In this document: piece after piece, positions 18,177 to 52,382 of the stretch
How the letters are laid out: each line of letters begins with the position of its first letter
Position numbering within the stretch: position 1 is the first letter of the stretch
Origin: Candidatus Latescibacterota bacterium
GTDB lineage: Bacteria > Latescibacterota > UBA2968
Length of the DNA: 64,000 nucleotides
Assembly: GCA_965208125.1 (NCBI GenBank)
Contig: OZ242320.1
Coordinates: 3,648,001-3,712,000, forward strand
Reading direction: 5' to 3'
Program-made: the position numbers and the translations under genes
Notes under the pieces: model-generated
The model's database searches: none
Told to the model about the DNA's origin: nothing
Seen by the model: only the letters and a program-made list of their open reading frames with translations

Positions 18177-18249
18177 TACTAAAATCACGAGATTACTAAA
18201 GATAGCTTAAGTAATCGAAAAACTAACTGTGTGCGTCTCGGAAATTGTC

Positions 18250-18278
18250 TTGACATCTCAAAAGTTATTTGTTAGCAT
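18250..18278 (+). promoter_or_regulatory. Sigma70-like promoter
   Basis: TTGACA-17nt-TAGCAT with extended TG; supports the start at 18328. Confidence 0.65.
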
Positions 18279-18327
18279 AAAAATTCAATTTTTTAAAATG
18301 TTCAGCATTTTAACAGGAGCCTCCTCG

Positions 18328-30139: not shown

Positions 30140-30382
30140 ATGAAAATTACCGAGACCAATACCACTATTGGCGCACTGATTGAACGGCTCGAAGCTACGG
30201 GAAAGCCTAAGACGACGAAGGCCCGAGCCTTCATTATCATAGAGGATGAGTCCGCACAGACACGCGAAGATATCCGAGAGGCTGTGGCGCAGTTTCGGGC
30301 GAGTTTTAAGGATATACCCTCTGAGGAGATCGAACAAATTATTGGTGAATCCAGACGGGCAGTAAGAGCGCGAGGATCATGA
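30140..30382 (+). CDS. Probable antitoxin of the downstream PIN toxin
   Basis: Small ORF with ATGA overlap to the PIN gene; EEIEQII..SRR tail. Confidence 0.65.
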   Translation: MKITETNTTIGALIERLEATGKPKTTKARAFIIIEDESAQTREDIREAVAQFRASFKDIPSEEIEQIIGESRRAVRARGS

Positions 30383-30813
30383 CGCGAATTGTGCTGGATA
30401 CCAATGTATTAATCAGTGCTATCCTGAATCCGCACGGGAGTCCAGGCATTATACTTGACCGGGTCTTTGATCAGAAAGTATCTCTTTGTCTCTCTGCGCC
30501 CCTTATAGATGAAATTCAGCGCGTCATTCATTATGAAAAGATGGTTGATTTGCTAAAAAGAGGGGGAAGGACCGTTGAGCAGGCGGGAGAGATTGTAGAT
30601 AAGATTGTTGGGATAGCGGAATTAACCGCTGGTCGCAGAGAAGTAAGCCTGATAGATGCGGATCCTGATGATAATATGGTGCTGGGGTGCGCTCTTGAAG
30701 CCGAGGCAGATTACATCATTTCTGGAGATCGACATCTCACTGCCTTAGGTGATTTTCAAGATATACCCATTCTCACGCCCAGGGCTTTCTTGGATATGCA
30801 GGTTAATTCTTGA
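30379..30813 (+). CDS. PIN-domain (VapC-like) toxin
   Basis: VLDTNVLISA, DPDDN, ADYIISGDRHL. Confidence 0.92.
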   Translation: MTRIVLDTNVLISAILNPHGSPGIILDRVFDQKVSLCLSAPLIDEIQRVIHYEKMVDLLKRGGRTVEQAGEIVDKIVGIAELTAGRREVSLIDADPDDNMVLGCALEAEADYIISGDRHLTALGDFQDIPILTPRAFLDMQVNS

Positions 30814-31047
30814 ATATCCTGATCTTATTCTGGCTTTCAACGATGAGTTGGCTCAGTCTATGTCTGATGGTTTCTTGTCTCGTGTATGGAAATTTTGATG
30901 TTGTGGAATAAGGTAAGATAAATTTTTTCGGGAGGTTCCATGTATGCCCTGTGCAGATGGGTACCTGGAGCCTCCTTTTTGTTTATATATAAGGTAGATA
31001 CTGTAAGGGCAAACCCCTGTGTTCGCCTATTGTTAGAGGATATCCTT

Positions 31048-32607
31048 ATGCGTATTTTTTTAGTTGTACATTTCATGGTATTTCTATTCTTCAGTCCTGT
31101 ATTTTCAGAAATAGATGTTGGTGTCGTATCTGAAAGTATTGTGCAGGTGCGTGCGTACAAGAATAACAGAATTATAGCTGAAGGAAGCGGCTTTGTTGTC
31201 AATGAGGAAGGGTATGTGCTAACCAATGCACATCTTTCAGCAGATGCGGAAAGATTAACTGTATTAGCCTTCAAAACAGGTGTCGAGATCGTGTCACAGC
31301 AGGTCTTTGCCAACCGGGATTTAAATCTCGCTTTATTGCGAGTACAGGGACTGGGTTTACCGTCCCTCAACTTATCCGAGCAAGGATCCGCTGTGGGGCG
31401 GGTCGTGCAAACCCTGAAGTTGACTCTTCAGGATAGTATCCAGATTGCTCGCGGGACTATTGGTGCATACCAGGATGTGCCGGGAAAAAAAGTGAGTGAT
31501 CCCGTGGCACATTTGCTACAGCACAATGCCATAGTGACTTCCAAAGCATTCGGTATGCCACTGTTTAATGAGTGTGGGGATGTTATCGCTATCAATCTGC
31601 CAGATCCGGATAGCGGACGCTGGCCGTTTCGGAAAGCAGCCCCCAAAGGAATAATTTTTGCCTTGCGTAGTAGCGATATCATTGCCGTGCTTAAAGACTT
31701 GGAAATTGCACATTCATTGGTTGAGGAAGAATGCTTGAGTGCCGTGGAACGAGCTGAACGAGATAGAAAAATCGCAGAAGGTCGTATCAAAGCGGCACAA
31801 GATAGTGCCCAGGCAATAGCAAAAGCGGCAAGAGATAGTGTTAGTGCAGAAAGAGCTGCCCGGTTGGCGGCAGAAAGAGCGATCAGAGCTAAGCAACAAG
31901 AGGCCGAAAAAGCAAAAGCACGGGCAGATTCAGCAAGCAAGGCGGCAATAGATAGTATCAATACAGCCCGGCTGGCATTAGAACGAGAAAAGGCTAAGAC
32001 AGATTCGTTAAAGAAGGCGACACAGGAGCGTATTGCCGCTCAAAAAGCAGCAGATAGTCTCGCCGTAGTGCATCAAGAGGCGCGTGAGAAGACATCGCAA
32101 AGATTGCAATGGGCCATCGTCTCTGGGGGCACTGTGGTCATTCTGGTGCTTCTCGGCTGGTTCATTTTCGCGCGTAGTAAAAAGGCACAATTGCAGAGTG
32201 CCGCCTCTCGTTTGAGCGAGGCAGAACAAGAGGCTGAAGTCGCGCGACAGGCCGTGGCAGAGGCACCACAGCCCGCGCCTTTCAGATGTCTATTAGAAGG
32301 TCAAGATAACACAGGCCAACCCTTTGCACTGAGTATATCGGCATTAGCCCTTGGTACGTCTTCAGGTGCCACACTTGGGAGAAGCCCTGCCAATGCGGAA
32401 TTTATTATTGACCACGAGGCCGTATCTCGTGAACACATCAGGCTTTTCTATACCAATGAACATCTCTATACAGAAGATCTGAACACTCTGAACGGCACTA
32501 AGATCAATGGTCGCCTGCTCAATCCGCACGAATCAGTGGTATTGCAAAACAATGATCAACTCGAGTTGGGGCCTGTTGTTTTTCAAGTGCGTTTGATGCA
32601 GGAGTGA
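31048..32607 (+). CDS. Inactive trypsin-like domain + coiled coil + TM + FHA protein
   Basis: Signal peptide; GSGF and TNAH present but GNSGGP replaced by KAFGMP; TM WAIVSGG..WFIF; FHA GRSP/SREH/NGT. Confidence 0.85.
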   Translation: MRIFLVVHFMVFLFFSPVFSEIDVGVVSESIVQVRAYKNNRIIAEGSGFVVNEEGYVLTNAHLSADAERLTVLAFKTGVEIVSQQVFANRDLNLALLRVQGLGLPSLNLSEQGSAVGRVVQTLKLTLQDSIQIARGTIGAYQDVPGKKVSDPVAHLLQHNAIVTSKAFGMPLFNECGDVIAINLPDPDSGRWPFRKAAPKGIIFALRSSDIIAVLKDLEIAHSLVEEECLSAVERAERDRKIAEGRIKAAQDSAQAIAKAARDSVSAERAARLAAERAIRAKQQEAEKAKARADSASKAAIDSINTARLALEREKAKTDSLKKATQERIAAQKAADSLAVVHQEAREKTSQRLQWAIVSGGTVVILVLLGWFIFARSKKAQLQSAASRLSEAEQEAEVARQAVAEAPQPAPFRCLLEGQDNTGQPFALSISALALGTSSGATLGRSPANAEFIIDHEAVSREHIRLFYTNEHLYTEDLNTLNGTKINGRLLNPHESVVLQNNDQLELGPVVFQVRLMQE

Positions 32608-32610
32608 AAA

Positions 32611-33930
32611 TTGCAATCGATATGCAACTATTGGCGTCTTGTCGGTCTTGTTTTCGCGTTTCTGTTTTTTTCGCGCGATGCTGTCGCCGCGCCAGACTTT
32701 GATGCGCTTGAGAAGAGTGTTGTACGTATTGTAACGCAGACAAATCAGGGGATTGGTACGGGTACTGGATTTATAATTAACGATCAAGGTTATATCGTCA
32801 CGAACGTACACGTTATTGCCGGTAGCAATTTGATCAAAGCAATACCGACAAATTCCAATGCACTGTACGATGTTGAAGTGATTGCCATGTCCCAGGAACT
32901 CGATCTGGCAATCGTACGCGCACCAGGGATCAATCTTCCACCGATTACGCTTTCGCTCGCGCCATCGAGAAAGGGGCAAAAGGTATGGTCTATTGGTTAC
33001 CCAGGCGGAGCCGATAGGAACAGACCTGCCCACGATCCAACTGTGCAGGATGGTGTTATAGGTAGAATTTTTTCAGGTGCATGGAAGGTACAAAAATTCA
33101 GGATTATTCAACACAACGCGCCTACGAACCCCGGTAACAGCGGCGGTCCTTTATTGGACGACTGTGGAAGGGTGATCGGTGTTAATACGCAAGCGTCTCT
33201 CGTCGTGATTGCCAGCCCATCTGATGGAGTAACGCGGGTGCCACACGCGGCGGGTATTTATTGGTCTTCCCATATTGAGGAATTAGCAAAACTGTTACGT
33301 GAAAATACAATTTCTTTTCAGTCGGACGACGATGAGTGTTTGGCGGCTGATTCTACTGGGCGTTCTGCGGAGGTGGAAAGAACGCGCCGGGAGGCGGACC
33401 AAGCAAAGAGTCAAGCAGATGATGCGAGCCAGAAATTTCTTATTTGGGTGATATTATTGGGTGCTGTGGCTGTGGTCGCTCTTATACTTGCTTTGAAGAA
33501 ACCTCGGCAGCAGATCATTCACGCTGCAGACCATATCAGCCGACGCCTTAAGGCAAAAGAACCTGCTGAGGCTGTTCAAAAACGAGCATCGGAAAAACTT
33601 CCAGAATACGGTCTGATGCTGACCGGGTTTGATGGTAATGGCAATCCCATCCGCATTGCTTTACCGCCAAACAGATTCGCTGGTCAGCGTCTGGGGCTTT
33701 CATTGGGCAGGCATCCCGAGTTGGTGGATGAAATTATCCATGACCAAAATGTGTCGAGGCGGCATATGCGAATAGCGGTGCAAGCGGGTCAATTTTATAT
33801 TGAAGATTTGAACTCTCGTAACGGCACTTTTCTGAATCACCACAAATTGTCTCCGTTTAAGCCAATGCTTTTAGACTATGGTGCGATAGTGAGATTGGGT
33901 GGTTTAGAGTTCATGATTTCAAAACAGTAA
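32611..33930 (+). CDS. Active trypsin-like serine protease + TM + FHA protein
   Basis: Signal peptide; triad TNVH/DLAIV/GNSGGPL; TM; FHA GRHP/SRRH/NGT. Confidence 0.92.
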   Translation: MQSICNYWRLVGLVFAFLFFSRDAVAAPDFDALEKSVVRIVTQTNQGIGTGTGFIINDQGYIVTNVHVIAGSNLIKAIPTNSNALYDVEVIAMSQELDLAIVRAPGINLPPITLSLAPSRKGQKVWSIGYPGGADRNRPAHDPTVQDGVIGRIFSGAWKVQKFRIIQHNAPTNPGNSGGPLLDDCGRVIGVNTQASLVVIASPSDGVTRVPHAAGIYWSSHIEELAKLLRENTISFQSDDDECLAADSTGRSAEVERTRREADQAKSQADDASQKFLIWVILLGAVAVVALILALKKPRQQIIHAADHISRRLKAKEPAEAVQKRASEKLPEYGLMLTGFDGNGNPIRIALPPNRFAGQRLGLSLGRHPELVDEIIHDQNVSRRHMRIAVQAGQFYIEDLNSRNGTFLNHHKLSPFKPMLLDYGAIVRLGGLEFMISKQ

Positions 33931-33946: not shown

Positions 33947-34867
33947 ATGAAAAAACGCAACCGAGAAATTAATATTTTTAGCATGTCTGCTCTCGATCTA
34001 TTCGCTTCGGCAATGGGAGCTTTCATTTTAATTACCATTGTGCTGTTTCCCTTTTTTCCGAACTTGGGCGATTCATCGGAAAACATGGAAAAAGAAAAGG
34101 CCGAACTGTTACAGGAAAAGGCTAAACTACAACAGGAAAAGGCTAAACTACAACAGGAAAAGGCTAAACTACAACAGGAAAAGGCCAGATTGGAGCAAGA
34201 AAAAGCTAAACTACAACAAGAGAGAGCTAAACTGGAACAAGAAAAAGCCAAAACCCCCCAAAAAAATACCCCACTTGAAGAACGGGTTAAAGCTCTGCAA
34301 CAGGAGATTGATGACACATCTGTTTTATTGGGTATCAGGACCAAAGCAAAGAAGTTTGTGATGGTCGTGGATATGTCTGGCAGTATTTATCAACCAGGCA
34401 GCCAGGACTATCGCCGGTTCATTACATTGTCAGTACAGAATATGCTTGCTTCTTTTCAATCGGAGATAGAATTGGTTCTTATTGGTTTTCACGCCCCAAA
34501 TCGCAGGACACGATTGCACTATTGGCCTGAAAATAGGCATTATTTTCAGGTGCGGAAGAATACGCGAAATCGCGTTATAGCTACTATAAACAACTGGATG
34601 AGTCTCGTTAATGGTGGCACACCAACCCGTGAAGCTCTGTTGGCGGCATTGGCTCTCGATCCCGAAGAGATTATCCTCTTAAGCGATGGCGCACCCTCGG
34701 AAAATTGGCGGCAGGTCGTCAATGCTATAACAGTCAGAAACAGAAAAAAAATACCGATACACGCTGTTGCTGTTGGCAACTATGTCACAAAACGAGATTT
34801 TATCGATTTTTTGGTGCAGTTGACAGAGCGGAATCGCGGGTATCTCGTAGGTGCCAAACCCGGGTGA
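33947..34867 (+). CDS. Single-pass vWA protein with ExbD/MotB-like N-terminal helix and coiled-coil stalk
   Basis: Basic N-terminus, SALDLFASAMGAFILI helix, heptad repeats, MIDAS DMSGS/GGT/SDG. Confidence 0.85.
   Translation: MKKRNREINIFSMSALDLFASAMGAFILITIVLFPFFPNLGDSSENMEKEKAELLQEKAKLQQEKAKLQQEKAKLQQEKARLEQEKAKLQQERAKLEQEKAKTPQKNTPLEERVKALQQEIDDTSVLLGIRTKAKKFVMVVDMSGSIYQPGSQDYRRFITLSVQNMLASFQSEIELVLIGFHAPNRRTRLHYWPENRHYFQVRKNTRNRVIATINNWMSLVNGGTPTREALLAALALDPEEIILLSDGAPSENWRQVVNAITVRNRKKIPIHAVAVGNYVTKRDFIDFLVQLTERNRGYLVGAKPG
34091..34253 (+). repeat. 21-nt coding tandem repeat (QEKAKLQ)
   Basis: acaggaaaaggctaaactaca x3 perfect (34111-34173) plus about 4 degenerate copies. Confidence 0.9.
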
Positions 34868-34986
34868 GGAGAAGTGCGAAGTAGTAAAGTATGAGTTGGA
34901 GTTAAGGTGTTGGAAGATGTTTTAGAATCTCTGGGGGAGAGACTATGCGGATGAGACGCACGTGCACCCATTGAGAGGATTTCGGG

Positions 34987-35349
34987 ATGTCTAATTTTTT
35001 TATTTATCGAATCGGTCGCGGTTCAAATGTGGATATTCGCATTGATGATAGCACAGTTTCCCGCATTCACGCAGAGTTGGTTGTGACTGCGAAGGAGACA
35101 TATTATCTGACTGATTGCGATAGTAGCGGCGGGAGTTATGTTGCGAGAAATGGCGAGTGGGAACCTATTACGCAGGATTTTATAGCTCCGATGGATGCAA
35201 TTCTACTCGGTCGGTATCAGACGACCGTACAGCAACTCATGGCGATGATTAATCAAGGTAGCCAGGATGTAAGACGCAAGGATGATTTACCCGAAGGACC
35301 GGTGCGTCGCAATGTAGATACGGGTGAAATTATAGGAGACGAGGACTGA
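34987..35349 (+). CDS. Stand-alone FHA protein
   Basis: IGRG, VSRIH, DCDSSGGS; GAGGA RBS. Confidence 0.9.
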   Translation: MSNFFIYRIGRGSNVDIRIDDSTVSRIHAELVVTAKETYYLTDCDSSGGSYVARNGEWEPITQDFIAPMDAILLGRYQTTVQQLMAMINQGSQDVRRKDDLPEGPVRRNVDTGEIIGDED

Positions 35350-35350
35350 C

Positions 35351-36136
35351 ATGGCAATGGGTCAAACAGTAGAGACGAATCAACGCCTCATCGCATCAGG
35401 TTTCAGTTTAGTAATAGGTATTATTCTTATCGCGCTACTGAGTATTTTTTTTAACAGTCCCGATTCACAAGTGGGTGCTTTCTTGCTTGACCGTCACACG
35501 AAGAATTTTCCCTATCCATTTACGATCCAAAATATCATGTGGCTTATGTTTTGCATAGGCTGTGGCGAGTTGTGGGGGCGATTTAGCCAGTCCAATTTGG
35601 AGTTGAAGCAAATCTCAAAGCGGTATCTTCCAGAAGACGATTCGATTATGTTGCGGGCGCAGGATCTCGGTGCTCTCTATCAAAAGATGCGCCCAAGGGA
35701 AGGGGAACGGACTTTTTTCTTGCAACGCTTAATCACACGCTGTATTTTGCAATTTCAAGGGAGCAGATCCGTCAATCAGACCAATTCTCTGTTAAATTCT
35801 TCTCTGGAATTATTCCAGCACGAGCTTGAACTCAAATACACTATGCTGCGATATCTCGTCTGGCTGATTCCCACGATGGGCTTTATTGGCACAGTTGTGG
35901 GGATCGCCTTTGCACTGGATTATGCAGCGAGCATTGAAAATCCCCAGGATCCGACGTTGCTGGCGGAGATAACCGGACGGTTGGGTGTTGCGTTTTATAC
36001 GACCTTACTCGCCTTGATTCAATCGGCACTGTTAGTTTTTGCCCTGCATATCGCCCAAGGAAGAGAAGAGATGGCTTTGAATCAATCGGGGCAGTACTGT
36101 TTGGATAATTTAATTAACCGACTCTATGAAAAATAG
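35351..36136 (+). CDS. MotA/TolQ/ExbB proton-channel family protein
   Basis: LIPTMGFIGTVVGI and AFYTTLLAL channel helices; four TMs. Confidence 0.9.
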   Translation: MAMGQTVETNQRLIASGFSLVIGIILIALLSIFFNSPDSQVGAFLLDRHTKNFPYPFTIQNIMWLMFCIGCGELWGRFSQSNLELKQISKRYLPEDDSIMLRAQDLGALYQKMRPREGERTFFLQRLITRCILQFQGSRSVNQTNSLLNSSLELFQHELELKYTMLRYLVWLIPTMGFIGTVVGIAFALDYAASIENPQDPTLLAEITGRLGVAFYTTLLALIQSALLVFALHIAQGREEMALNQSGQYCLDNLINRLYEK

Positions 36137-36148
36137 GAGGGTAGTGTT

Positions 36149-36802
36149 ATGCCTGTTTATCGGGGACCCGATGGCAAGATTATTGAAGAAAAAACCAATA
36201 AGTTAGAAGATGTAACCCAGTCGACTGACAAGGCACAAAGACCTTTGCCACCAACACCACCGGGAAGCGGTCAAGCCGCCGGTGCGGGGCGTTTGGATGC
36301 ACCCACCCAGAAGATGGATGCGAGTGGTTCTTCATCCAATGCAATTACTGAGGAAAAGACTCGGGTCGTAGGTGGTCGTCGCAGGCAAGAAGATCAGCAG
36401 CGCTTGGAAGAACGCGCCGAGAAAGCCGATGGTATGGACGATCCAGTTGTTGGGTGGTTGGTTATTGTCGAGGGGCCGGGAAAGGGGAGGGCCATGCAAT
36501 TAGGTTATGGTTCTAATTCCATTGGCCGCGGGGAGACTGACCGTGTCAATCTCAATTTCGGTGATGATCAAATTTCGCGTAGCGGACATGCTATCATGAC
36601 TTACGATCCGCGTGGCAGAAAGTTTTACGTGCAGCACGGCGGTGGTACCAATCTGACCTACGTTAACGACCAGCCCGTGCTCATTCCGATTGAGCTGCCC
36701 GCACTGAGTCATATTAGCATCGGCAATACGATTCTGCGATTTGTGCCCTTATGTGGCGACGCATTTGATTGGCAGGATACGGGAGAAAATGCGCGAGAGT
36801 AA
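36149..36802 (+). CDS. FHA protein with disordered Thr-rich N-terminus
   Basis: PVVGWLVIVEGPGKG, IGRG, ISRSGH; AGGAGG RBS. Confidence 0.9.
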   Translation: MPVYRGPDGKIIEEKTNKLEDVTQSTDKAQRPLPPTPPGSGQAAGAGRLDAPTQKMDASGSSSNAITEEKTRVVGGRRRQEDQQRLEERAEKADGMDDPVVGWLVIVEGPGKGRAMQLGYGSNSIGRGETDRVNLNFGDDQISRSGHAIMTYDPRGRKFYVQHGGGTNLTYVNDQPVLIPIELPALSHISIGNTILRFVPLCGDAFDWQDTGENARE

Positions 36803-36835: not shown

Positions 36836-39316
36836 ATGAACGAAGCACAACATCCGATCCATGCCTTGCCTCAAGGATACCGACTACAGGAATACGAACT
36901 GGTACGCGTGCTCGGCTTCGGCGGCTTCGGCATGACCTATCTTGGCTTTGACCACAATCTGAACAAAGCTGTAGCCATCAAAGAATACCTGCCATCAGAT
37001 ATTTCCACCCGTACAAGCAATAATAGCGTTGTCCCACAAGCGAGCCAGTTTCAAGATGATTTTGAGTGGGGATTGGAGCGCTTTTTGGATGAAGCACGCA
37101 CCTTGGCTCGCTTTGACCATCGCAACATTATTAAAGTGTATCGTTTCTTTGAGGCACATGGCACGGCGTATATCGTGATGGAATATGCTGAGGGTGAGAC
37201 CTTGGCAGCATTTTTGGAACGCAAGGGGACGCTAACAGAAGCCGAACTCAGAGCGATACTATATCCGCTTCTGGATGGTCTGGAGGTGGTGCATCGTGCT
37301 GATTTTTTGCATCGGGACATCAAGCCTGGCAATATCATCATCCGGGATGAGGACAATTCGCCCGTGTTGCTGGACTTTGGTTCAGCGCGTCAGGCGATGG
37401 GAGCGAAGAGCCGTTCGGTTACGTCGATCATCACACCGGGATATGCGCCGATAGAGCAGTATTCGAGTCGAGGTGATCAGGGTCCTTGGACGGATATCTA
37501 TGCATTAGGTGGTGTATGCTATCGTACATTGACTGGTGAAGTGCCAGATGATGCGACGGATCGTGTTCGGGATGATCCACTTATTTCAGTAGTTGAGCTT
37601 TGTGCGGGTCAAGCGAGTTCTGGATTTTTATCTGCGATAGATTGGGCGTTGGTGGTGGATGAGGGTGATCGTCCGCAAAGTATAGGTGTATGGCGTACTG
37701 CGTTGGGGGAAGAAATACCAAGGAATGTGAGTGCTCAGCCGTCAATCACGGCGTCTGTGCCTGCCCCTCCATTGGAAGAAGAGAAGCGTGAGATAGTTGA
37801 TAGCATAGCTGGGAGGCAGCCTGATGCATTTCCATCGGAAAGAGAAAGGGGGACAAGAGGCAAGGTACTTGCTGTGATCATAAGCGTGGTTGTTGTCCTG
37901 ATTGTAGGCATAATTTATATTGATCAAGCTGAGAAGCAGCGTCAGGAGTTAGTAGCAGAACAAGCAAGACTGAAAAAAGAAAAAGCAAGATTGGCAGCAG
38001 AAAGAGCGCGAATAGCGGCAGAGCAAGCTGAGAAGCAGCGTCAAGAGCAAGCAGCATTGGAGAAGCAGCGTCAAGAGCAAGCAGCATTGGAGAAGCAGCG
38101 TCAAGAGCAAGCAGCATTGGAGAAGCAGCGTCAAGAGCAAGCAGCATTGGAGAAGCAGCGTCAAGAGCAGGCGAAAACAAAAGAAGAACTACAGGAACCA
38201 GTGTTGCACGGTGATGTGCGTCGAGGATTTTTAGGTGTACAGATTAGTGACTTAGATCCGGTGCGAGCTAAGGCTTTAGGGGCGTCCAATATCCAAGGCG
38301 TGGTAATTGAGCAGGTAATACCGGGAAAAGCTGCGGACAGAGCAGGTGTCAAGACCAATGATATTGCGATTGCAGTTGATGGTCACTCGGTGAGCGACGT
38401 AACCGAGTTGACTAGTCGGATCGGGCGTGTGCGTCCTGGTACAGAAGTCGAACTGTCAATATTGCGCAATGGTAGGAAGATGCGCATTAAGGTTGTTTTA
38501 GATGCATTGTCCGAGACAGTAGTGACTGCACATAGCCCGCTAAACAACCTGAACAATATTCAGCCTGGCCGACGTTTTAAGGACTGTTCCGTGTGTCCTG
38601 AGATGATCGTCGTTCCATCTGGTTCATTTACTATGGGGTCACCGTCCTCTGAAGTCGGACGTAAGGATACTGAAAGTCCGCAACGTCAGGTGCGTTTCAC
38701 TAGGCCATTTGCCGTGGGAGTCTATGAAGTGACATTTGAGGAATGGGATGCCTGTGTGAATGCGGGAGGATGTAACAACTCTTATCCTATTGATCAGAAT
38801 TGGGGGCGAGGCAACCGGCCCGTGATCAATGTGAGTTGGAACGATGCACAGGCTTATATACGGTGGTTATCTGAACGGACGGGCAAGCATTATCGATTAT
38901 TGAGCGAATCGGAATGGGAATATGTGGCGCGTGCAGGAACGACGACCCCATTTCATTTTGGAGCAACTATATCTACGGATCAAGCGAATTACAATGGCAA
39001 TTATACATACAACACTGGTCACAAAGGCCTATTTAGAAAAAAGACCTTACCGGTGGGAACGCTTTCACCGAACCAATTTGGTTTGTACGACATGCATGGC
39101 AATGTAATAGAGTGGACTCAGGACTGTTGGAACGACAGTTATAATCGAATATCGAGTAATGGGGCAACTCGTGAGTATGGGAACTGTGGTTTTCGCGTGA
39201 TTCGCGGTGGTTCGTGGTACAACGAACCACGGTATCTCCGCTCAGCAAATCGTGGTCGGGGTACGCGTGAGATTCGGAATGCCTATATCGGATTTCGTGT
39301 CGCCCGTACGTTCTGA
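36836..39316 (+). CDS. Ser/Thr kinase-TM-coiled coil-PDZ-FGE-sulfatase protein
   Basis: GFGGFG, AIKE, HRDIKPGN, DFG; TM; GFLGV PDZ; FTMGS, EWEY, YDMHGNV, RGGSW, GFR. Confidence 0.93.
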   Translation: MNEAQHPIHALPQGYRLQEYELVRVLGFGGFGMTYLGFDHNLNKAVAIKEYLPSDISTRTSNNSVVPQASQFQDDFEWGLERFLDEARTLARFDHRNIIKVYRFFEAHGTAYIVMEYAEGETLAAFLERKGTLTEAELRAILYPLLDGLEVVHRADFLHRDIKPGNIIIRDEDNSPVLLDFGSARQAMGAKSRSVTSIITPGYAPIEQYSSRGDQGPWTDIYALGGVCYRTLTGEVPDDATDRVRDDPLISVVELCAGQASSGFLSAIDWALVVDEGDRPQSIGVWRTALGEEIPRNVSAQPSITASVPAPPLEEEKREIVDSIAGRQPDAFPSERERGTRGKVLAVIISVVVVLIVGIIYIDQAEKQRQELVAEQARLKKEKARLAAERARIAAEQAEKQRQEQAALEKQRQEQAALEKQRQEQAALEKQRQEQAALEKQRQEQAKTKEELQEPVLHGDVRRGFLGVQISDLDPVRAKALGASNIQGVVIEQVIPGKAADRAGVKTNDIAIAVDGHSVSDVTELTSRIGRVRPGTEVELSILRNGRKMRIKVVLDALSETVVTAHSPLNNLNNIQPGRRFKDCSVCPEMIVVPSGSFTMGSPSSEVGRKDTESPQRQVRFTRPFAVGVYEVTFEEWDACVNAGGCNNSYPIDQNWGRGNRPVINVSWNDAQAYIRWLSERTGKHYRLLSESEWEYVARAGTTTPFHFGATISTDQANYNGNYTYNTGHKGLFRKKTLPVGTLSPNQFGLYDMHGNVIEWTQDCWNDSYNRISSNGATREYGNCGFRVIRGGSWYNEPRYLRSANRGRGTREIRNAYIGFRVARTF
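38030..38169 (+). repeat. 30-nt perfect coding tandem repeat (EKQRQEQAAL)
   Basis: gagaagcagcgtcaagagcaagcagcattg x4 plus a 20-nt partial copy. Confidence 0.95.
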
Positions 39317-39438
39317 GTCTTACATTTTTAATTTATAATCACTCACAGGTCTTTTAGTTGGCGTTGATATACGTTCCGATTCGGTTCTATACTGATGTCC
39401 ACTATGAATAATCATCCATTTTTTAAGGAGGAATAGCA

Positions 39439-40002
39439 ATGAAATGGCACTATGTATGGCACTTGATGACTGTTTTCATTTTGAGTTCTCCTGCCATGTG
39501 TATTGACTCATCTGATCTCACAATTGGCGACCGTATTCGGGTTACTTTCGCAAATGGAACTATCATCACAGGTTCTATGATCTCAATGGAGGTAGATGGC
39601 TTGAAAATGAAACAAGATGGGCAGAGCCATTTTCAGAGGATGGTGACTTTTAGCGATGTCGAGCGGATAGACCACAGTATTGGTGTCAATAAGCCTCTAT
39701 TCACACCTACTATTATTTGCGGTCTGATAGGTTCAGGTATCTATACACTTTCAAAATATAAACAGGTTGAAGGACAGGAAGGGGTTCCAACAGAAGATAA
39801 GAAGTATGAATTCAGGGATTGGGATAACAAACAGGCGGCTTACTTTACGCTCGGTGGCATAACAACGGGATTTTTAATAGGCCTGATGCTCCCAGGCAAA
39901 GAGAATTGGGAGAAAGTTGAGTTAATGCAATTTGGTTTAGATATTGACATGAATTTAGGACATAGTGGAATAGCGATGCTTGAGTTGAAAATTAAATTTT
40001 AA
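39439..40002 (+). CDS. Hypothetical exported/membrane protein
   Basis: AAGGAGG RBS, signal peptide, two Gly-rich hydrophobic segments, terminal F. Confidence 0.75.
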   Translation: MKWHYVWHLMTVFILSSPAMCIDSSDLTIGDRIRVTFANGTIITGSMISMEVDGLKMKQDGQSHFQRMVTFSDVERIDHSIGVNKPLFTPTIICGLIGSGIYTLSKYKQVEGQEGVPTEDKKYEFRDWDNKQAAYFTLGGITTGFLIGLMLPGKENWEKVELMQFGLDIDMNLGHSGIAMLELKIKF

Positions 40003-40304
40003 ATATTGATATCCAGGCAGGCAGAACTCGAAGCACAGTCATTTCTTGCTCTATTAGGTAATCTCTGGAAAAGATGAACAGCGTCATCAACTTATAGTGC
40101 CTGCTTTGACATATTTGTGCAGTAGCCACTGTGGTAGCCCTAAGGACGCCAATGTTGTCTGGGGTAGGGGTCATTCAAAAAAAAACGATTTGATCCTTAC
40201 CCCAAACTGTCAATCCCTTTGATAAACTCAGAGCACAGCATTTTTTATCGAGCGTATAGGTCTTCTCAATGCGCTTTTTTTATTTTCTATATCTGGTCGG
40301 TTAC

Positions 40305-40370
40305 TTGTATGATGTAGCTGGTAGCGATGCTCTTGAAGCGGTAAAAGTATTGCATCGTTAAGGTGGTTTG
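40305..40370 (+). pseudogene. Fossil 3' end of an ankyrin-repeat gene
   Basis: Reads LYDVAGSDALEAVKVLHR*GG, matching the intact tails ETVEVLRRYGGR and TAGILRRYGGQ. Confidence 0.55.
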
Positions 40371-40409
40371 AAGGTGAGATAAGCTAATTTTTAAATAATC
40401 GGAAATGCT

Positions 40410-42566
40410 ATGAACGAAGCACAACAACCTCTCAATGCTCTGCCTCAGGGGTATCGGCTTCAAGAATATGAACTGGTACGTGTCCTCGGCTTTGGCGGAT
40501 TTGGCATGACCTATCTCGGCTTTGACCACAATCTGAACAAAGCCGTGGCCATCAAGGAATACCTCCCATCTGATATTGCTATCCGTACAAACGATAACAG
40601 CGTTGCTCCGCAAGTCAGCCAGTTTCAAGATGATTTTGAGTGGGGATTGGAGCGTTTCTTAGACGAAGCACGCACCTTGGCTCGTTTTGATCATCGCAAC
40701 ATTATTAAAGTATATCGTTTCTTTGAGGCACACAGCACAGCCTATATCGTGATGGAATATGCCGAGGGTGAGACCTTGGCAGCATTTTTGGAACGCAAGG
40801 GGACGCTAACAGAAGCCGAACTCAGAGCGATACTATATCCGCTTCTGGATGGTCTGGAGGTGGTGCATCGTGCTGATTTTTTGCATCGAGATATAAAGCC
40901 TGGTAACATCATCATCCGAGACGAGGACAATTCACCAGTATTGTTGGACTTTGGTTCAGCGCGTCAGGCGATGGGAGCAAGGAGCCGTTCGGTTACGTCG
41001 ATCATCACACCGGGATATGCGCCGATAGAGCAGTATTCGAGTCGAGGTGATCAGGGTCCTTGGACGGACATCTATGCGTTAGGAGGTGTATGCTATCGTA
41101 CATTGACTGGTGAAGTGCCAGATGATGTGACGGATAGGGTGCGGAATGATCCTTTAATTCCGGTATCTGAGCTGTGTGCGGGTCAAGAGAGTGCGAGTTT
41201 TTTATCTGCGATAGATTGGGCGTTATCTGTAGATGAGGGTGATCGTCCGCAAAGTATAAATGTCTGGCGAACTGCGTTGGGAGAAGAGACACCGAGGATT
41301 GAGAATGTTCAACCATCAGTCACGGCGTCTGTGCCTGCCTCTCCATTGGAAGAAGAGAAGCGTGAGGCAGTTGTTGGCAAAACCATGAGGCAGCCTGATG
41401 CATTTCCATCAGAAAGGGAAAGGGGAACAAGAGGAAAGTTGCTTGCTGTGATCGGAAGTGTGGTTGCTGTCCTGATAGCAGGCATAATTTATATTGATCA
41501 AGCTGAGAAACAGCAGAAAGAGCAAGTGGCATTGGAAAAGCAGCGCCAAGAGTTGGTAGAAGAAAAAGCAAGATTGGCAGCCGAGCAAGCAGAGAAGCAA
41601 CGTCAGGAGCAAGCAGCGTTAGAAAAGCAACGTCAGGAGCAGGCCTTGTTGGAAAAGCAGCATCAGGAGCGGGCTACAGAAAGAGCGCGACTAGCGGCAG
41701 AGCAAGCTGAGAAGCGGCGCCAGGAGCAAGAGGCTGAAAAAACAAGACGACTGGCGAAGTGGCGGGATCCCAAGACGGGCAGAACATCGCTGCATGATGC
41801 GGCCTATAAAAATGCTCCTGAGACAGCAGAAGTATTGCTCAAGCACGGGGCTGACCCTAATGCGCAAGACAGAGATGGTCATACGCCATTGTACAATGCT
41901 GTGAGGAAATGTAGTCGTGAGGTAGTAGAGCTATTGCTCAAACAAGGTGCCGATGTCAACGCAAAGAGCAATTTTGGTGGGACGCCACTGCACGAAGTGT
42001 TACAGACACATGTTAGTGCGGTAATCCAGTCAAGAAAGTATTCCAGTTTTGAAAAAAAAAGAGGTGATGAGTTTCGTAAGAAAGCAGAAGTTGCTCTTGA
42101 TATCTTCAAGTTATTGCTCAAACATGGTGCTGATGTCAATGCGAAGAACAATTTTGGTGGGACGCCACTGCACAGCAGTATTATGTATAACTCCTCTGAT
42201 GAGACTAAGATAGTTGAGATGGCAGAGCTATTGCTTAAACACGGTGCCGATGTCAATGCGAAGGACAACGGGGGCTTGACGCCGCTACACACTGGAGCGC
42301 ACAATGCGAAGAATAACCAAATTTCTGTTGAGATGGCAGAGCTATTGCTTAAATATGGTGCCGATCCCAACACGAAGGATAAAGATGGCCGCACACCGTT
42401 GCACTGGGCTGCTTGGAACATAAATTCTCATAAGTTTGCAGAGCTATTGCTCAAACATGGTGCCGATGTCAATGCGAAGGACAATTTAGGCGAGACACCG
42501 TTGCACGATGCGAGAATGCGTTCTCCTCGTACGGCGGGGATATTGAGACGTTACGGTGGACAATAA
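40410..42566 (+). CDS. Ser/Thr kinase-TM-coiled coil-ankyrin repeat protein
   Basis: Intact kinase motifs; TM; repeated TPLH...LLKHGADVNAK. Confidence 0.93.
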   Translation: MNEAQQPLNALPQGYRLQEYELVRVLGFGGFGMTYLGFDHNLNKAVAIKEYLPSDIAIRTNDNSVAPQVSQFQDDFEWGLERFLDEARTLARFDHRNIIKVYRFFEAHSTAYIVMEYAEGETLAAFLERKGTLTEAELRAILYPLLDGLEVVHRADFLHRDIKPGNIIIRDEDNSPVLLDFGSARQAMGARSRSVTSIITPGYAPIEQYSSRGDQGPWTDIYALGGVCYRTLTGEVPDDVTDRVRNDPLIPVSELCAGQESASFLSAIDWALSVDEGDRPQSINVWRTALGEETPRIENVQPSVTASVPASPLEEEKREAVVGKTMRQPDAFPSERERGTRGKLLAVIGSVVAVLIAGIIYIDQAEKQQKEQVALEKQRQELVEEKARLAAEQAEKQRQEQAALEKQRQEQALLEKQHQERATERARLAAEQAEKRRQEQEAEKTRRLAKWRDPKTGRTSLHDAAYKNAPETAEVLLKHGADPNAQDRDGHTPLYNAVRKCSREVVELLLKQGADVNAKSNFGGTPLHEVLQTHVSAVIQSRKYSSFEKKRGDEFRKKAEVALDIFKLLLKHGADVNAKNNFGGTPLHSSIMYNSSDETKIVEMAELLLKHGADVNAKDNGGLTPLHTGAHNAKNNQISVEMAELLLKYGADPNTKDKDGRTPLHWAAWNINSHKFAELLLKHGADVNAKDNLGETPLHDARMRSPRTAGILRRYGGQ

Positions 42567-42587
42567 ATATAAAATATCGGAAATGCT

Positions 42588-44819
42588 ATGAACGACGCAC
42601 AACACCCGATCCAGGCCTTGCCTCAAGGATACCGACTACAGGAATACGAACTGGTACGCGTGCTCGGCTTCGGCGGCTTCGGCATGACCTATCTTGGCTT
42701 TGACCACAATCTGAACAAAGCTGTAGCCATCAAAGAATACCTGCCATCAGATATTTCCACCCGTACAAGCAATAATAGCGTTGTCCCACAAGCGAGCCAA
42801 TTTCAAGATGATTTTGAGTGGGGCTTGGAGCGTTTCTTAGATGAAGCGCGTACCTTAGCCCGCTTTGACCATCGCAACATTATTAAAGTGTATCGTTTCT
42901 TTGAAGCACATGGCACGGCGTATATCGTGATGGAATATGCTGAGGGTGAGACCTTATCGGCATTTCTGGAACACAAAGGGATACTGAAGGAATCAGAACT
43001 CAGAGCGATACTATATCCGCTTCTGGATGGTCTGGAGGTGGTGCATCGTGCTGATTTTTTGCATCGAGATATAAAGCCGGGCAACATCATCATTCGTGAT
43101 GAAGATAATTCGCCTGTATTACTGGACTTTGGTTCAGCGCGTCAGGCGATGGGAGCAAGGAGCCGTTCGGTTACGTCAATCATCACGCCGGGATATGCGC
43201 CGATAGAGCAGTATTCCAGTCGTGGGAATCAGGGTCCTTGGACAGACATCTATGCGTTGGGTAGTGTATGTTATAGTGCGTTGACCGGTGAAGTTCCTGA
43301 CGATGCTACGGATAGGGTACGGAATGATCCTTTGATTCCAGTGGTTGAGTGCTGTGCGGGTCAAGCGAACTCAGGGTTTTTATCAGCGATAGACTGGGCG
43401 TTGGTGGTAGATGAGGGTGATCGTCCGCAAAGTATCAGTGTATGGCGTACTGTATTGGGAGAAGAGACACCGAGGATTGAGAATGTTCAACCATCAGTCA
43501 CGGTGTCTGTGCCTGCCCCTCCCTTGAAAGAAGAGAAGCGTGAGGCAGTTGTTAGCACGGCTAGGATGCAGCCTGATGCATCCCCATCGGAAAGAAAAAA
43601 ACACACAAGAGGAAAGCTGCTTGCAGTGGTCATAAGTGTGGTTGCTGTCCTGATTGTAGGCATAATTTATATTGATCAAGCCGAGAAGCAGCGTCAAGAG
43701 TTGGCCGTGTTGGAAAAGCAGCGTCAAGAGTTGGCAGCAGAAAAAACAAGGTTGGCGGCAGAGCAAGCTGAGAAGCAGCGCCAGGAGCAAGCAGCAGAAA
43801 GAGCGCGACTGGCGGCAGAGCAAGCAGAGAAGCAACGTCAGGATCAGGAAGCAGAAAGCGCCAGACAAGCTGCTGAGCGTCAGGATAAAATCACACGATA
43901 TAAGATGAAGTTTGAGGAGGCGTTGGGACGTAATGATTTTGATATGGCGGGTAGGTATGTAGATTCTATCCGAGCAGTTGATAGTAATGCGTCAATGTTG
44001 TCAAATTTGGAAGGTCGCTTGTCGGAGGCGCGTCAACGCTTAGTGAACAGGACATTCAGAGACTGTGGAGAATGTCCACAGATGGTAGAGGTGCCGTTGG
44101 GTTCGTTTACAATGGGATCACCTAGTTGGGAGTGGGACCGTGATGATGATGAGGGGCCTATTCATCGTGTGAGGATAGATTATAGGTTAGCAGTGGGTAT
44201 GTATGAAGTGACCTTTGGCGAGTGGGATGCGTGCGTGTCTGCTGGTGGTTGTAGGGGGTATATTCCAGATGATGAGGGCTGGGGACGAGGGAACCATCCG
44301 GTGATCAATGTGAGTTGGAAAGATGCTCAGTCTTATGTGTCGTGGTTGTCGCAACGGACAGGTGAATCGTATCGTTTACTGAGCGAGTCAGAGTGGGAGT
44401 ATGTGGCGCGAGCTGGATCGGTGACAGCTCGTTATTGGAGAGAACCGGCAAATGATCAGTGCCGTTATGGGAATGGTGCGGATGAGACAGCGAAACGATA
44501 TAATAGTAGCTGGACTGTTGCATCGTGTGACGATGGTTATTATGGGACATCACCAGTGGGAAATTACGAGGCAAATAATTTTGGTTTGTATGATGTGTTG
44601 GGCAACGTGTGGGAATGGACTGAGGATTGTTATAAAGATAGCTATTCGGGATTACCTGCTGACGGTTCTGCGCAGGCGTCTGAGGACTGCGCTGAACGCG
44701 TGTTGCGTGGCGGTGCGTGGAGCAGCAAGCCGAGAGACCTCCGCTCGGCTGACCGCTTCCGCTACTCTCCCGAGGTCCGTGCTGTCCATTGGGGTTTTCG
44801 AGTTACCCGGCGTTTTTAG
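42588..44819 (+). CDS. Ser/Thr kinase-TM-coiled coil-FGE-sulfatase protein
   Basis: Intact kinase motifs; TM; FRDCGECP, FTMGS, GNVWEW, RGGAW, GFR. Confidence 0.93.
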   Translation: MNDAQHPIQALPQGYRLQEYELVRVLGFGGFGMTYLGFDHNLNKAVAIKEYLPSDISTRTSNNSVVPQASQFQDDFEWGLERFLDEARTLARFDHRNIIKVYRFFEAHGTAYIVMEYAEGETLSAFLEHKGILKESELRAILYPLLDGLEVVHRADFLHRDIKPGNIIIRDEDNSPVLLDFGSARQAMGARSRSVTSIITPGYAPIEQYSSRGNQGPWTDIYALGSVCYSALTGEVPDDATDRVRNDPLIPVVECCAGQANSGFLSAIDWALVVDEGDRPQSISVWRTVLGEETPRIENVQPSVTVSVPAPPLKEEKREAVVSTARMQPDASPSERKKHTRGKLLAVVISVVAVLIVGIIYIDQAEKQRQELAVLEKQRQELAAEKTRLAAEQAEKQRQEQAAERARLAAEQAEKQRQDQEAESARQAAERQDKITRYKMKFEEALGRNDFDMAGRYVDSIRAVDSNASMLSNLEGRLSEARQRLVNRTFRDCGECPQMVEVPLGSFTMGSPSWEWDRDDDEGPIHRVRIDYRLAVGMYEVTFGEWDACVSAGGCRGYIPDDEGWGRGNHPVINVSWKDAQSYVSWLSQRTGESYRLLSESEWEYVARAGSVTARYWREPANDQCRYGNGADETAKRYNSSWTVASCDDGYYGTSPVGNYEANNFGLYDVLGNVWEWTEDCYKDSYSGLPADGSAQASEDCAERVLRGGAWSSKPRDLRSADRFRYSPEVRAVHWGFRVTRRF

Positions 44820-44896
44820 TTCTTACTACTTTGCTTTTTGGGGATGTGGGAGAAGAAATGATGATGAGGATTTTGGGGTATGTGAGGGTTTTTCGG

Positions 44897-44974
44897 GCCA
44901 TCCTGTGGTTTATCTGGATGGGCTGGTTGATCCACCTGTGGTCGGTTCTGAACGCCGCCCGGCGGAGGCCGTAA
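44897..44974 (+). pseudogene. 5'-truncated copy of the small membrane protein at 52123
   Basis: AILWFIWMGWLIHLWSVLNAARRRP versus AILWFIWMGWIIHLWSVLNAARWRP; the 5' part is unrelated. Confidence 0.85.
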
Positions 44975-45034
44975 GCGCATACACTTTAATACCAACAATC
45001 GCGCTCAAGTATAGCACGCGATAAGAGGAAGTAT

Positions 45035-48264: not shown

Positions 48265-48297
48265 AATAAGCTGATTCTTAAAAAAAACGAAAATGCT

Positions 48298-50013: not shown

Positions 50014-50144
50014 TTTAATAAGCGGGCTACTCCGACAATGACCGAAACCATGTCCTGCGTAGCAACGACGGTCAATGATTGGTAATTGGATGTGATCGCC
50101 GTGTTATCATCGGCGGTACCTGTCTGATGGGGGCGTGGAAGCTG

Positions 50145-50191
50145 GCTCTTGAACAGTAGTAGTATTGTGCCTTTACGGTGAGCGAAGGTGA
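50145..50191 (+). pseudogene. Second fossil ankyrin-gene 3' end
   Basis: gctcttgaa|cagtagtagtattgtgcctttacggtgagcgaaggtga aligns with 40329-40378 and reads ALE(T)VVVLCLYGERR* with one frameshift. Confidence 0.45.
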
Positions 50192-50224
50192 AATAAGCTA
50201 ATTTTTGAAATAATTGGAGATGGT

Positions 50225-51970: not shown

Positions 51971-52122
51971 CTCTTGATTCTTTACTCCTTTACCTCTTTT
52001 GTAGGGAAGGGTAGATAAATGAAGATGGAATTTTTTTTAAAAGAGGTCTTGTGCAGTTAAGGTGATAGATCAGATGCAGGGTAAAGCGGCTTGATCAGTG
52101 CAGATGAAAAGGAGAAAATATT

Positions 52123-52320
52123 ATGGCGGGGCAAGGTTCGGGCGGTAATGTTCTGGCAGCTTTGTGTAGCTTTTTTATTCCGGGTTTGGGCCAGTTGCTT
52201 CAGGGGCGTTTGCTAATTGCCCTTTTCCAATTTGTTTTGGCGGCCATCCTGTGGTTTATCTGGATGGGCTGGATAATCCATCTGTGGTCAGTTTTGAACG
52301 CGGCCCGGTGGAGACCATGA
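52123..52320 (+). CDS. Small hydrophobic membrane protein
   Basis: AAGGAG RBS; AALCSFFIPGLGQL motif (TM2-like). Confidence 0.85.
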   Translation: MAGQGSGGNVLAALCSFFIPGLGQLLQGRLLIALFQFVLAAILWFIWMGWIIHLWSVLNAARWRP

Positions 52321-52382
52321 GCGCATATAATCGTTAATATCGACAATCGTGCTCAGGTAGAGTACGCGATAAGAGGAAGTAT

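Follow-up and report, generated by a model that had tools for sequence, protein, structure and literature searches.

A conserved Asp-bearing helix protein as a candidate inner subunit of a MotA-like unit in a kinase, phosphatase, FHA and protease gene module

We explored a 64,000-nucleotide stretch of DNA from a Candidatus Latescibacterota bacterium (assembly GCA_965208125.1, contig OZ242320.1, positions 3,648,001 to 3,712,000 of the forward strand), which at its full length is called the window here. Within it lies a gene coding for a 306-amino acid (aa) protein that consists of a single transmembrane (TM) helix, a coiled coil and a domain of the von Willebrand factor A (vWA) type. The reading that we favor, and consider probable, is that this helix protein and the MotA-like protein encoded two genes downstream form a stator-like, ion-driven unit, the former as its inner, Asp-bearing subunit and the latter as its outer one. 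The feature itself is real and its pairing with the MotA-like protein is well supported by comparative evidence, with the physical contact between the two being predicted. The parts concerned are as follows.

33947..34867, + strand: 306-aa protein with helix, coiled coil and vWA domain, proposed as the inner 'B-type' subunit (open reading frame, translation, AlphaFold 2 model and family alignment)
33968..34057, + strand: Asp-bearing TM helix, residues 8-37, the most conserved part of the protein (family alignments)
34094..34252, + strand: 21/42-nucleotide tandem repeats encoding QQEKAKL heptads of the coiled-coil stalk (tandem repeat finder)
34352..34867, + strand: vWA domain with an intact metal ion-dependent adhesion site, MIDAS (Pfam, alignment, AlphaFold 2 and Foldseek)
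35351..36136, + strand: 261-aa divergent member of the MotA/ExbB/TolQ family, proposed as the outer 'A-type' subunit (PF01618, alignments and AlphaFold 2)

Translation of the open reading frame (ORF) at 33947-34867 gives the N-terminus MKKRNREINIFSMSALDLFASAMGAFILI, exactly as reported in the original prediction, a note on this DNA made from its letters without database searches. The protein is composed of a basic tail (residues 1-7), a TM helix (~8-37, within a region where the hydrophobic stretch covers residues 10-41) that carries Asp17 (codon 33995-33997), a coiled coil (~45-123) and the vWA domain (~136-306), and it has a conserved P-x-F-P-N exit motif.

Conservation of the helix was analyzed in three samples. 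The first is a set of related loci: the MotA-like protein has 2186 homologues, and 80 of its 492 relatives in one-genome-per-species contigs were taken with 10-kb flanks, the nearest ones (94% and 93%) being from Candidatus Latescibacterota metagenome-assembled genomes. Genes in these 80 loci are the ORFs recognised by BLAST to window proteins, together with those found by a helix profile. The second sample is the best 120 of 246 close homologues that the helix protein has at E≤1e-3. The third comes from the helix profile, made from the first 55 residues and searched against 1.84 billion cluster representatives, which matched 1183 clusters (50% identity) at E≤1e-3 and 643 at E≤1e-10; the best 150 of the 1183 were inspected, and these fit the profile by construction.

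The original prediction had hinged on conservation of the Asp, and this residue turns out never to be lost. Specifically, Asp17 is kept in 71 of 71 helix-protein copies from 69 related loci, in 119 of the 120 close homologues, where the sole exception is an N-truncated ORF, and in 150 of the best 150 clusters. All of the best 120 close homologues keep the helix segment, and in nearly all of the inspected clusters the profile match begins at residue 1. The neighboring positions are equally constant: F11, S14, D17, L18, F19, G24 and F26 occur in 150/150 of the best 150 clusters, and F11, S14, D17, L18, A20, S21, G24 and F26 are invariant in 20 cross-phylum sequences. Conservation of this helix is far beyond chance.

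We next compared the helix with other membrane segments of the locus, using only loci where the MotA-like protein is less than 65% identical to that of the window and measuring identities against the window proteins. Under these conditions residues 10-36 of the helix retain 75% identity (n=27); the helix protein as a whole retains 21% (n=23). Within the MotA-like protein, which retains 55% overall, helix 166-190 is at 82% and helix 209-235 at 67%, with helix 1 (residues 14-35) at 30% (n=30 for each). As an ordinary-anchor control, the TM anchor of a neighboring protein that combines a protease-like domain with a forkhead-associated (FHA) domain, termed protease-FHA, is at 32% (n=17). Note that in the solved 5:2 motors (ExbBD, TolQR, MotAB) the last two helices of the A subunit line the pore around the B helices and the first faces lipid. 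Co-conservation of the helix with the two C-terminal helices of the MotA-like protein is thus the pattern predicted by a 5:2 arrangement, unlike that of an ordinary anchor. By sequence identity, constancy among the segments compared is limited to the helices that a 5:2 unit would bring into contact.

The pairing is also indicated by what accompanies the channel gene. A Pfam scan of the window's 48 ORFs that are 90 aa or longer (9 scanned at E≤0.01 and 39 at E≤1e-4) recovered no member of the ExbD, TolR, MotB, OmpA or TonB families, and none of the ExbD, MotB, OmpA or TonB families was found in 88 of 88 ORFs from seven diverse related loci. This bears out the claim that no ExbD/TolR/MotB gene accompanies the channel. 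Helix-protein ORFs, on the other hand, number 71 in 69 of the 80 loci, within 10 kb on either side of the MotA-like gene, and of the 11 loci that lack one, eight are on contigs that are short or cut.

Regarding the outer subunit, the 261-aa protein matches PF01618 over residues 136-238 (E=5.7e-10; 39.5 bits, with the cut-off at 22.9), and the same family is present in orthologues from the seven scanned loci. It has hydrophobic helices at ~14-35, 166-190 and 209-235 and a conserved semi-polar helix at 59-76. All 28 sequences compared share P174, T181, T217 and T218, and at least 90% of them have T175; the PTxGFxGT and AFxTT motifs to which these residues belong are likewise invariant in the 28 sequences and align to motifs of TolQ (TolQ segment G-L-F-G-T-V-W-G-I). 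A role for conserved Pro and Thr residues in pore-lining helices is established in the Ton, Tol and Mot literature. The AlphaFold 2 model of this protein (predicted local distance difference test score, pLDDT, 81.6) retrieved from the PDB, among the Foldseek matches listed, only A subunits of 5:2 motors, namely MotA, TolQ, ExbB, PomA and ZorA, with the best E value to MotA (6ysl, E=2.5e-3) and the best TM-score to TolQ (8vlw_B, 0.56/0.65). An additional stretch at residues ~36-90 is also strongly conserved (L-L-D-R, followed by Y-P-F-T-I-Q-N-x-M-W and by G-C-G-E-L-W, including an invariant T58); it has no counterpart in E. coli TolQ when the two are aligned and may be either a fourth TM helix or an element located in the cytoplasm.

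How far the helix protein resembles known B subunits is a separate issue. Placed side by side with E. coli TolR and ExbD it shares a basic tail, an E-I-N-I-type motif and then an Asp in the helix. Other B-subunit traits that are present include a single-pass, N-in helix whose Asp, located towards the cytoplasmic end, is retained by all but an N-truncated member, and a gene that is encoded together with an A-subunit gene. A trait that is absent is the usual periplasmic part, since a coiled coil and a vWA domain occur where an ExbD/TolR-type or OmpA-type domain would be found. Pfam ExbD and MotB_plug give no match to the whole helix protein (E≤0.01), nor to 12 relatives among the matches listed.

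Several observations weigh against the proposed pairing. The negative result for ExbD and TolR covers the 64-kb window, and such a gene may be located elsewhere in the genome. The distance between the MotA-like protein and solved A subunits is very large: no Foldseek match of its model reaches E≤0.001, and an hmmsearch of PDB sequences has a best E of 0.54, its profile matching only TolQ and PomA at E=0.5-0.8. In the helix, the Asp is located seven residues past the E-I-N-I motif, as opposed to five in both TolR (E-I-N-I) and ExbD (D-I-N-V). Residues 1-50 have no Pfam match to ExbD or MotB_plug even at E≤1, and hhalign comparison of the helix alignment with E. coli TolR, ExbD and MotB gives probabilities of 0.3%, 0.6% and 0.7%, respectively, in a test of low power that pairs a short segment with single sequences. 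Three full 20.8-kb loci (L006, L016 and L049) have the MotA-like core and no helix gene within 10 kb. Finally, the helix gene adjoins the protease-FHA gene in 56 of the 80 loci versus the MotA-like gene in 14. A structure prediction with four copies of MotA-like residues 40-261 and two of the 55-residue helix alignment, a truncated, non-native 4:2 assembly run with no controls, scored 0.15 and 0.13 against a mark of 0.32 and counts neither for nor against the pairing.

Since neither hhalign nor Pfam returns a significant match, homology of the helix protein to known B subunits is not demonstrable by sequence. Thus the protein is B-subunit-like in the features tested, yet it is not a demonstrable member of the ExbD/TolR/MotB family. 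The ExbD-like N-terminal pattern described in the original prediction is visible by eye; it is not statistically significant, and its Asp is displaced by two residues. The wider proposal, that the helix protein replaces ExbD/MotB at an orphan channel, gains from the invariance of the Asp, the co-conservation and the lack of ExbD/MotB nearby, and loses the part that concerns membership of the ExbD/TolR/MotB family.

The frequent position of the helix gene beside the protease-FHA gene indicates that a partnership with the protease is also possible. One alternative is therefore that the helix is a dedicated anchor that docks on the protease-FHA protein or on a receptor kinase encoded nearby, where the vWA domain and the protease would form a recognition and cleavage pair, with the MotA-like protein acting alone or with a distant ExbD/TolR. 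The gene adjacency, the lack of significant similarity to ExbD, TolR or MotB, and the three loci with a MotA-like core and no helix gene nearby are all as this alternative would have it. However, the TM anchor of protease-FHA is itself at 32% where the helix is at 75% and so cannot account for the constraint on the helix, and among TM segments of the module comparable conservation is seen only in the last two helices of the MotA-like protein (82% and 67%). It also leaves a buried, invariant Asp in a single-pass anchor unexplained, and the distant partner finds no local counterpart, as ExbD/MotB were not found near the seven scanned loci. We judge this alternative to be unlikely.

A simpler alternative is that the N-terminus is an ordinary signal peptide or anchor, with an A-S-A site at residues 20-22, and that its likeness to ExbD is due to chance. 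A basic n-region followed by a hydrophobic stretch and A-S-A is indeed signal-peptide-like, and the likeness to ExbD/TolR/MotB is, as noted, not significant. Signal peptides and anchors drift, however, as illustrated by the control anchor at 32%, while the helix holds 75% across phyla and includes invariant residues past the putative cleavage site (G24 and F26). The hydrophobic stretch of ~27-30 residues and a charged Asp within that stretch in every copy also argue against a signal peptide, which we regard as highly improbable.

Returning to the pairing that we favor, the short basic tail of the helix protein would be in the cytoplasm and helix 8-37 would be located among the two C-terminal helices of the MotA-like protein. 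We infer that two helix proteins, zipped together by their coiled coil, are held inside a MotA-like pentamer, making this a 5:2 unit. Asp17 would then face Thr181 and Thr217/218; the solved 5:2 motors have MotB Asp32, ExbD Asp25 and TolR Asp23 in the corresponding position. The coiled coil would hold the vWA head in the periplasm, where the MIDAS may grip a periplasmic ligand. Ion flow, if it is coupled as it is in the known motors, would turn or pull the stalk together with this cargo-binding head, and turning or pulling cargo would be the kind of periplasmic work that is performed.

Analysis of the vWA domain supports the assignment of the head. Its Pfam match (PF00092) is below the curated cut-off (20.6 versus 23.8 bits). 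However, the domain is modeled by AlphaFold 2 with a pLDDT of ~88-98, and Foldseek matches this model to solved structures, including the vWA domain of ITIH1 (E=2.8e-8), with 190 matches at E≤0.001. The vWA identity is thus confirmed despite the sub-cut-off Pfam score, because the fold matches solved vWA domains. An NCBIfam scan of the helix protein gave coiled-coil noise only, and an Atlas look-up gave generic vWA clusters. The MIDAS residues D142 (codon 34370-34372), S144, S146, T225 (codon 34619-34621) and D247 (codon 34685-34687) occur without exception in an alignment of 24 window-type relatives, in agreement with the earlier statement that the MIDAS is intact. Judged by its residues the window vWA domain is MIDAS-competent, and metal binding is predicted.

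This vWA domain is not the only head that the helix carries. Across relatives, the helix and coiled coil are joined to at least three head types: the window-type vWA, a second vWA type that in several relatives is clearly over Pfam cut-offs, and a DUF2135-like domain. Stalk length also differs between homologues, as seen by gapped coiled-coil columns in the alignment. The DUF2135-like head is ~120 aa with a D-L-H-V ... G-P-G-N-E-I-W motif and no Pfam match; it is found at L033:12504-13253, with similar heads in L021, L034, L050, L052, L057, L060 and L065. Its Atlas structural match to DUF2135/YfaP clusters (TM-score 0.82-0.96 by query) rests on models and is a lead to a possible relationship. 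Motif counts among the best 150 of the 1183 clusters assign 42 to the second-type vWA, 20 to the DUF2135-like head and seven to the window-type vWA; another 45 are shorter than 200 aa and mostly fragments, and the remaining 36 were left unclassified by the regular expressions and are, by eye, mostly variants of the three heads. Exchangeable heads on a helix that stays constant are what a motor adaptor would be expected to show. Thus the earlier idea of a vWA domain as the output of a motor describes the head carried by the window helix, and it has to be widened, as vWA is one of at least three interchangeable outputs.

The helix protein and the MotA-like protein are part of a larger module of kinase, PP2C, FHA and protease genes, a connection that the original prediction had not made. 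In the window they occur in a tight + strand gene run comprised of two protease-FHA genes, the helix protein gene, a small FHA gene, the MotA-like gene, a FipA-like FHA gene and then kinases and PP2C genes, with four FHA domains in total. The other members are as follows.

30940..32607, + strand: protease-like module protein 1, 555 aa, with a signal or anchor, trypsin-like domain, coiled coil, TM segment 388-413 and cytoplasmic FHA domain
32611..33930, + strand: protease module protein 2, 439 aa, with a trypsin-like domain containing GNSGGP, TM segment 271-299 and cytoplasmic FHA domain
34987..35349, + strand: small cytoplasmic FHA protein, 120 aa (PF00498, E=1.4e-12)
36149..36802, + strand: 217-aa FhaB/FipA-like FHA protein whose N-terminal half is disordered and rich in Thr/Ser (PF00498)
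36836..39316, + strand: Ser/Thr kinase, 826 aa, with a kinase domain, TM segment 338-367, coiled coil, PDZ domain and FGE-sulfatase-type domain
40410-42566, 42588-44819, 46231-48264 and 48298-50013, + strand: four further Ser/Thr kinases with ankyrin or FGE-sulfatase ends; 50225-51970 is also listed
45035-46234 and 52383-53579, + strand: two PP2C phosphatases

When the 80 related loci are considered, the module consists of seven gene families, namely the small FHA protein, the MotA-like protein, the FipA-like FHA protein, PP2C, one or two protease-FHA proteins, the helix protein and the Ser/Thr kinase. The MotA-like gene is recognised in 79 of the 80 loci, PP2C in 75, the kinase in 73, the FipA-like FHA gene in 71, the helix protein in 68 (69 by profile), protease-FHA in 66 and the small FHA gene in 57, with all seven families together in 44. 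A FipA-like FHA gene directly follows the MotA-like gene in 69/80 loci, and with PP2C next in line it forms a contiguous trio in 59/80. The small FHA gene is immediately upstream of the MotA-like gene in 55/80 loci, and in the window a single base separates its stop codon from the MotA-like ATG. The distance from the helix gene to the MotA-like gene is more variable: among the 68 loci in which both were recognised they are adjacent in 14, have one recognised gene between them in 22 and are two to four genes away in 32. Placement of an FHA gene between the two subunits, as described in the original prediction, is therefore true of the window but particular to Latescibacterota, and does not hold in general. 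The genes are arranged in at least five different orders, and the module is found in Latescibacterota, several gammaproteobacterial groups, Gemmatimonadota, Acidobacteriota, Binatia, Rhodospirillales, Rhodothermales and Parabeggiatoa. Cultured carriers include Halioxenophilus sp. WMMB6 (locus L079) and strain LSUCC0112 (locus L036).

Because the module holds kinase, PP2C and FHA proteins, assembly or activity of the unit is probably gated by threonine phosphorylation that is read by FHA domains. In such a scheme phosphothreonine marks would be placed by the receptor kinase, removed by PP2C and read by the two separate FHA proteins, small and FipA-like, as well as by the FHA tails that the proteases carry. 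The 217-aa FHA protein matches NCBIfam FhaB_Rv0019c at E=6.7e-13, under the cut-off. The kinase at 36836-39316 is the first of five paralogous receptor-type Ser/Thr kinases in 36836-53579. Their kinase and TM parts are near-identical and their periplasmic ends differ (PDZ plus FGE-sulfatase, FGE-sulfatase, or ankyrin repeats), and the kinase/PP2C array has the look of a set of sensors that expanded recently. A separate ankyrin protein of 141 aa is located at 53961-54386. Alignment of the two protease copies shows K-A-F-G-M-P in copy 1, with Phe in place of the nucleophile Ser, and G-N-S-G-G-P in copy 2; based on these residues copy 1 would be a pseudo-enzyme and copy 2 is likely an active enzyme. 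The first protease copy is also much weaker on Trypsin_2 in related loci.

A bolder extension of the same reading, which we offer tentatively and hold to be doubtful as a whole, is that this would be the first 5:2-type ion motor under Ser/Thr phospho-control. Such a motor would have a pentamer assembled or clutched by three or four FHA domains that respond to the threonine marks, and an Asp-helix axle with interchangeable heads (two vWA types or DUF2135), with the ligand of the MIDAS being pulled to the co-anchored protease pair, and it would constitute a periplasmic 'grip, pull and cut' machine powered by the proton motive force (PMF) and present in many phyla.

The same signalling content is open to a different explanation, namely that the complex forms and functions as a phosphorylation-gated ion leak or as a PMF sensor, for example as a membrane-depolarising stress or defence effector, with no motor involved. 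Signalling parts do dominate the window module (five kinases, two PP2C and four FHA domains), the kinase domains resemble defence-associated kinases at the domain level, and PADLOC gives weak matches to ZorA2 (E=2.8e-4) and ZorB1 (E=9.7e-4). Yet the PADLOC matches are domain-level and near threshold, and ZorC/ZorD-like genes were not found in the window. Moreover, a long dimeric coiled coil bearing heads with an invariant MIDAS looks like a mechanical output and not like a plug, and the module is located among housekeeping genes in many phyla. An ion leak or PMF sensor of this kind strikes us as quite unlikely. PADLOC, run on nine module proteins, assigned no membership of Zorya or of another defence system; it returned these ZorA2 and ZorB1 matches, the latter without a passing stretch, and no other Zorya models.

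There are several additional features of the module in related loci. Some gammaproteobacterial loci have a thermolysin-type peptidase-FHA protein that replaces or joins the trypsin type; at L055:5467-9452 (minus strand), and also in L063 and L071, a divergently encoded thermolysin-type (M4) peptidase-FHA protein is found beside a PP2C fused to an FTP propeptide motif. A vWA-FHA protein is encoded in Parabeggiatoa (L060:2381-3715). A 384-aa relative of the MotA-like protein (P0159) was considered as an FHA-MotA fusion and rejected, as its middle looks out-of-frame and it is probably a frameshifted gene call; a search for such fusions among longer proteins gave three matches, none with an FHA domain. 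Within the window, tandem repeats that encode coiled-coil stalks in frame also occur at 38030-38169, where the first kinase has 4.7 perfect copies of a 30-nucleotide unit, and at 41591-41670; together with the repeat at 34094-34252 they also give rise to long antisense ORFs. A 187-aa ORF (39439-40002) between the first two kinases has no Pfam or PADLOC match and no BLAST counterpart in the 80 loci. Just upstream of the module, at 30140-30813, an 80-aa ORF overlaps the start of a 144-aa PIN-domain protein (PF13470, E=9e-21), resembling a toxin-antitoxin pair. Further upstream are two large envelope proteins, one of 1113 aa with Peptidase_MA, PD40 repeats and an Omp85 barrel (6603-9944) and one of 1650 aa with M28 peptidase and FtsX permease domains (18229-23181).

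The 5:2 ion-driven units (Mot, Ton, Tol, Gld and Zor) are, to our knowledge, the sole bacterial route by which PMF energy is delivered beyond the inner membrane, and all characterised members that we know of use an ExbD/MotB-type axle. If the pairing proposed here is true, it would add to this class an extremely conserved axle helix, its profile matching 1183 clusters, that current models miss. It would also add swappable outputs on one axle helix, as well as a motor that is hard-wired to phospho-signalling of a eukaryote-like kind and to proteases of the periplasm. B subunits of this type escape annotation pipelines, with the helix protein receiving only sub-threshold vWA and coiled-coil matches. 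In the cultured carriers the system is testable in regard to how such motors switch on and what mechanical work they do.

Comparison with known systems shows likenesses and differences in each case. As in ExbB-ExbD and in TolQ-TolR, the MotA-like protein has an A-subunit fold (TM-score 0.56/0.65 to TolQ 8vlw_B) with PxxGxxGT and Thr motifs, and the helix protein has the basic tail, E-I-N-I motif and single Asp-bearing helix of an ExbD/TolR partner. Unlike ExbD/TolR, it matches neither Pfam ExbD nor E. coli ExbD/TolR, has its Asp two residues further along and has a coiled coil and vWA as its periplasmic part. TonB and TolA genes were not found in the window, and the A subunit has the extra ~36-90 segment, both unlike Ton and Tol systems. 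Regarding MotA-MotB and PomA-PomB, the best Foldseek E value is to B. subtilis MotA, and by eye D-L-F-A-S-A-M-G-A-F resembles D-F-M-T-A-M-M-A-F of MotB. However, structural overlap with MotA is poor (TM-score 0.40, root mean square deviation 11.9), the helix protein has no OmpA-like peptidoglycan-binding domain and no MotB_plug match, and there are no flagellar genes in the window. Zorya ZorA-ZorB, in which ZorB binds peptidoglycan, is similar in being a non-flagellar 5:2-type unit outside of motility and in its weak PADLOC ZorA2 and ZorB1 matches; it differs by its long ZorA tail, which the 261-aa A subunit here lacks, and by ZorC/ZorD-type genes, not found in the window.

Modules for threonine phosphorylation are well known, examples being PpkA-PppA-Fha1 of the type VI secretion system and mycobacterial FhaA/FhaB(FipA)-PstP-PknA/B, and a study of Deinococcus DRA0331-0334 reportedly describes a vWA-kinase-FHA-PP2C operon. 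The module here is like these Hanks kinase/PP2C/FHA/vWA modules in having a receptor kinase, PP2C, FHA readers and a vWA protein, with the 217-aa FHA protein resembling FhaB/FipA. We know of no such module that has been reported with a MotA/ExbB-family channel. Searches of open-access papers and bioRxiv full text found none that joins FHA, ExbB, PP2C and kinase, and none that joins a MotA/TolQ/ExbB phrase with FHA, kinase and phosphatase. In the same body of text, MotA, ExbB, vWA and FHA occur together in PMC12204202, where in the text as indexed 'FHA' matches the word FhaC only, and in a paper on the Myxococcus Agl-Glt gliding complex. Similarly, vWA with TolQ-like, ExbB-like or MotA-like wording was matched in PMC12204202 only. 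The words vWA and FHA do not occur in the available text of a survey of MotAB relatives (PMC12505986, mBio 2025).

The closest parallel is the family described in PMC12204202 (Mol Biol Evol 2025). According to the available passages of that paper, TM-tethered 'TPH-vWA' proteins with an Asp-bearing trans-pore helix are predicted, from synteny and AlphaFold 3 models, to be dimeric partners of TolQ-like pentamers that lack tolR/exbD. That family, which was seeded on Idiomarina, consists mostly of heterologous vWA gene pairs and is found mainly in Proteobacteria and Verrucomicrobia. The basic idea of a vWA partner for an orphan channel is thus already in print, and the feature described here is not categorically new. 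As described in those passages, both families have a single-pass vWA protein with an Asp helix, a linked TolQ/MotA-family gene, no tolR/exbD/motB found nearby and conserved channel Thr residues, and both are known from predictions alone. We count this independent prediction of the same solution as support, by analogy, for the pairing.

There are also differences, the two families being compared by description only. Unlike the vWA pairs in PMC12204202, a single helix gene is present in the window, and tandem helix genes occur in two of 69 loci (L042 and L043). The words kinase, phosphatase, trypsin, protease and forkhead, which name components of the module here, are absent from the available text of PMC12204202, and its passages do not describe non-vWA outputs such as the DUF2135-like head. 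What is distinctive here is a very conserved and previously unrecognised axle helix, its modular outputs, and the link to Ser/Thr phospho-signalling and periplasmic proteases.

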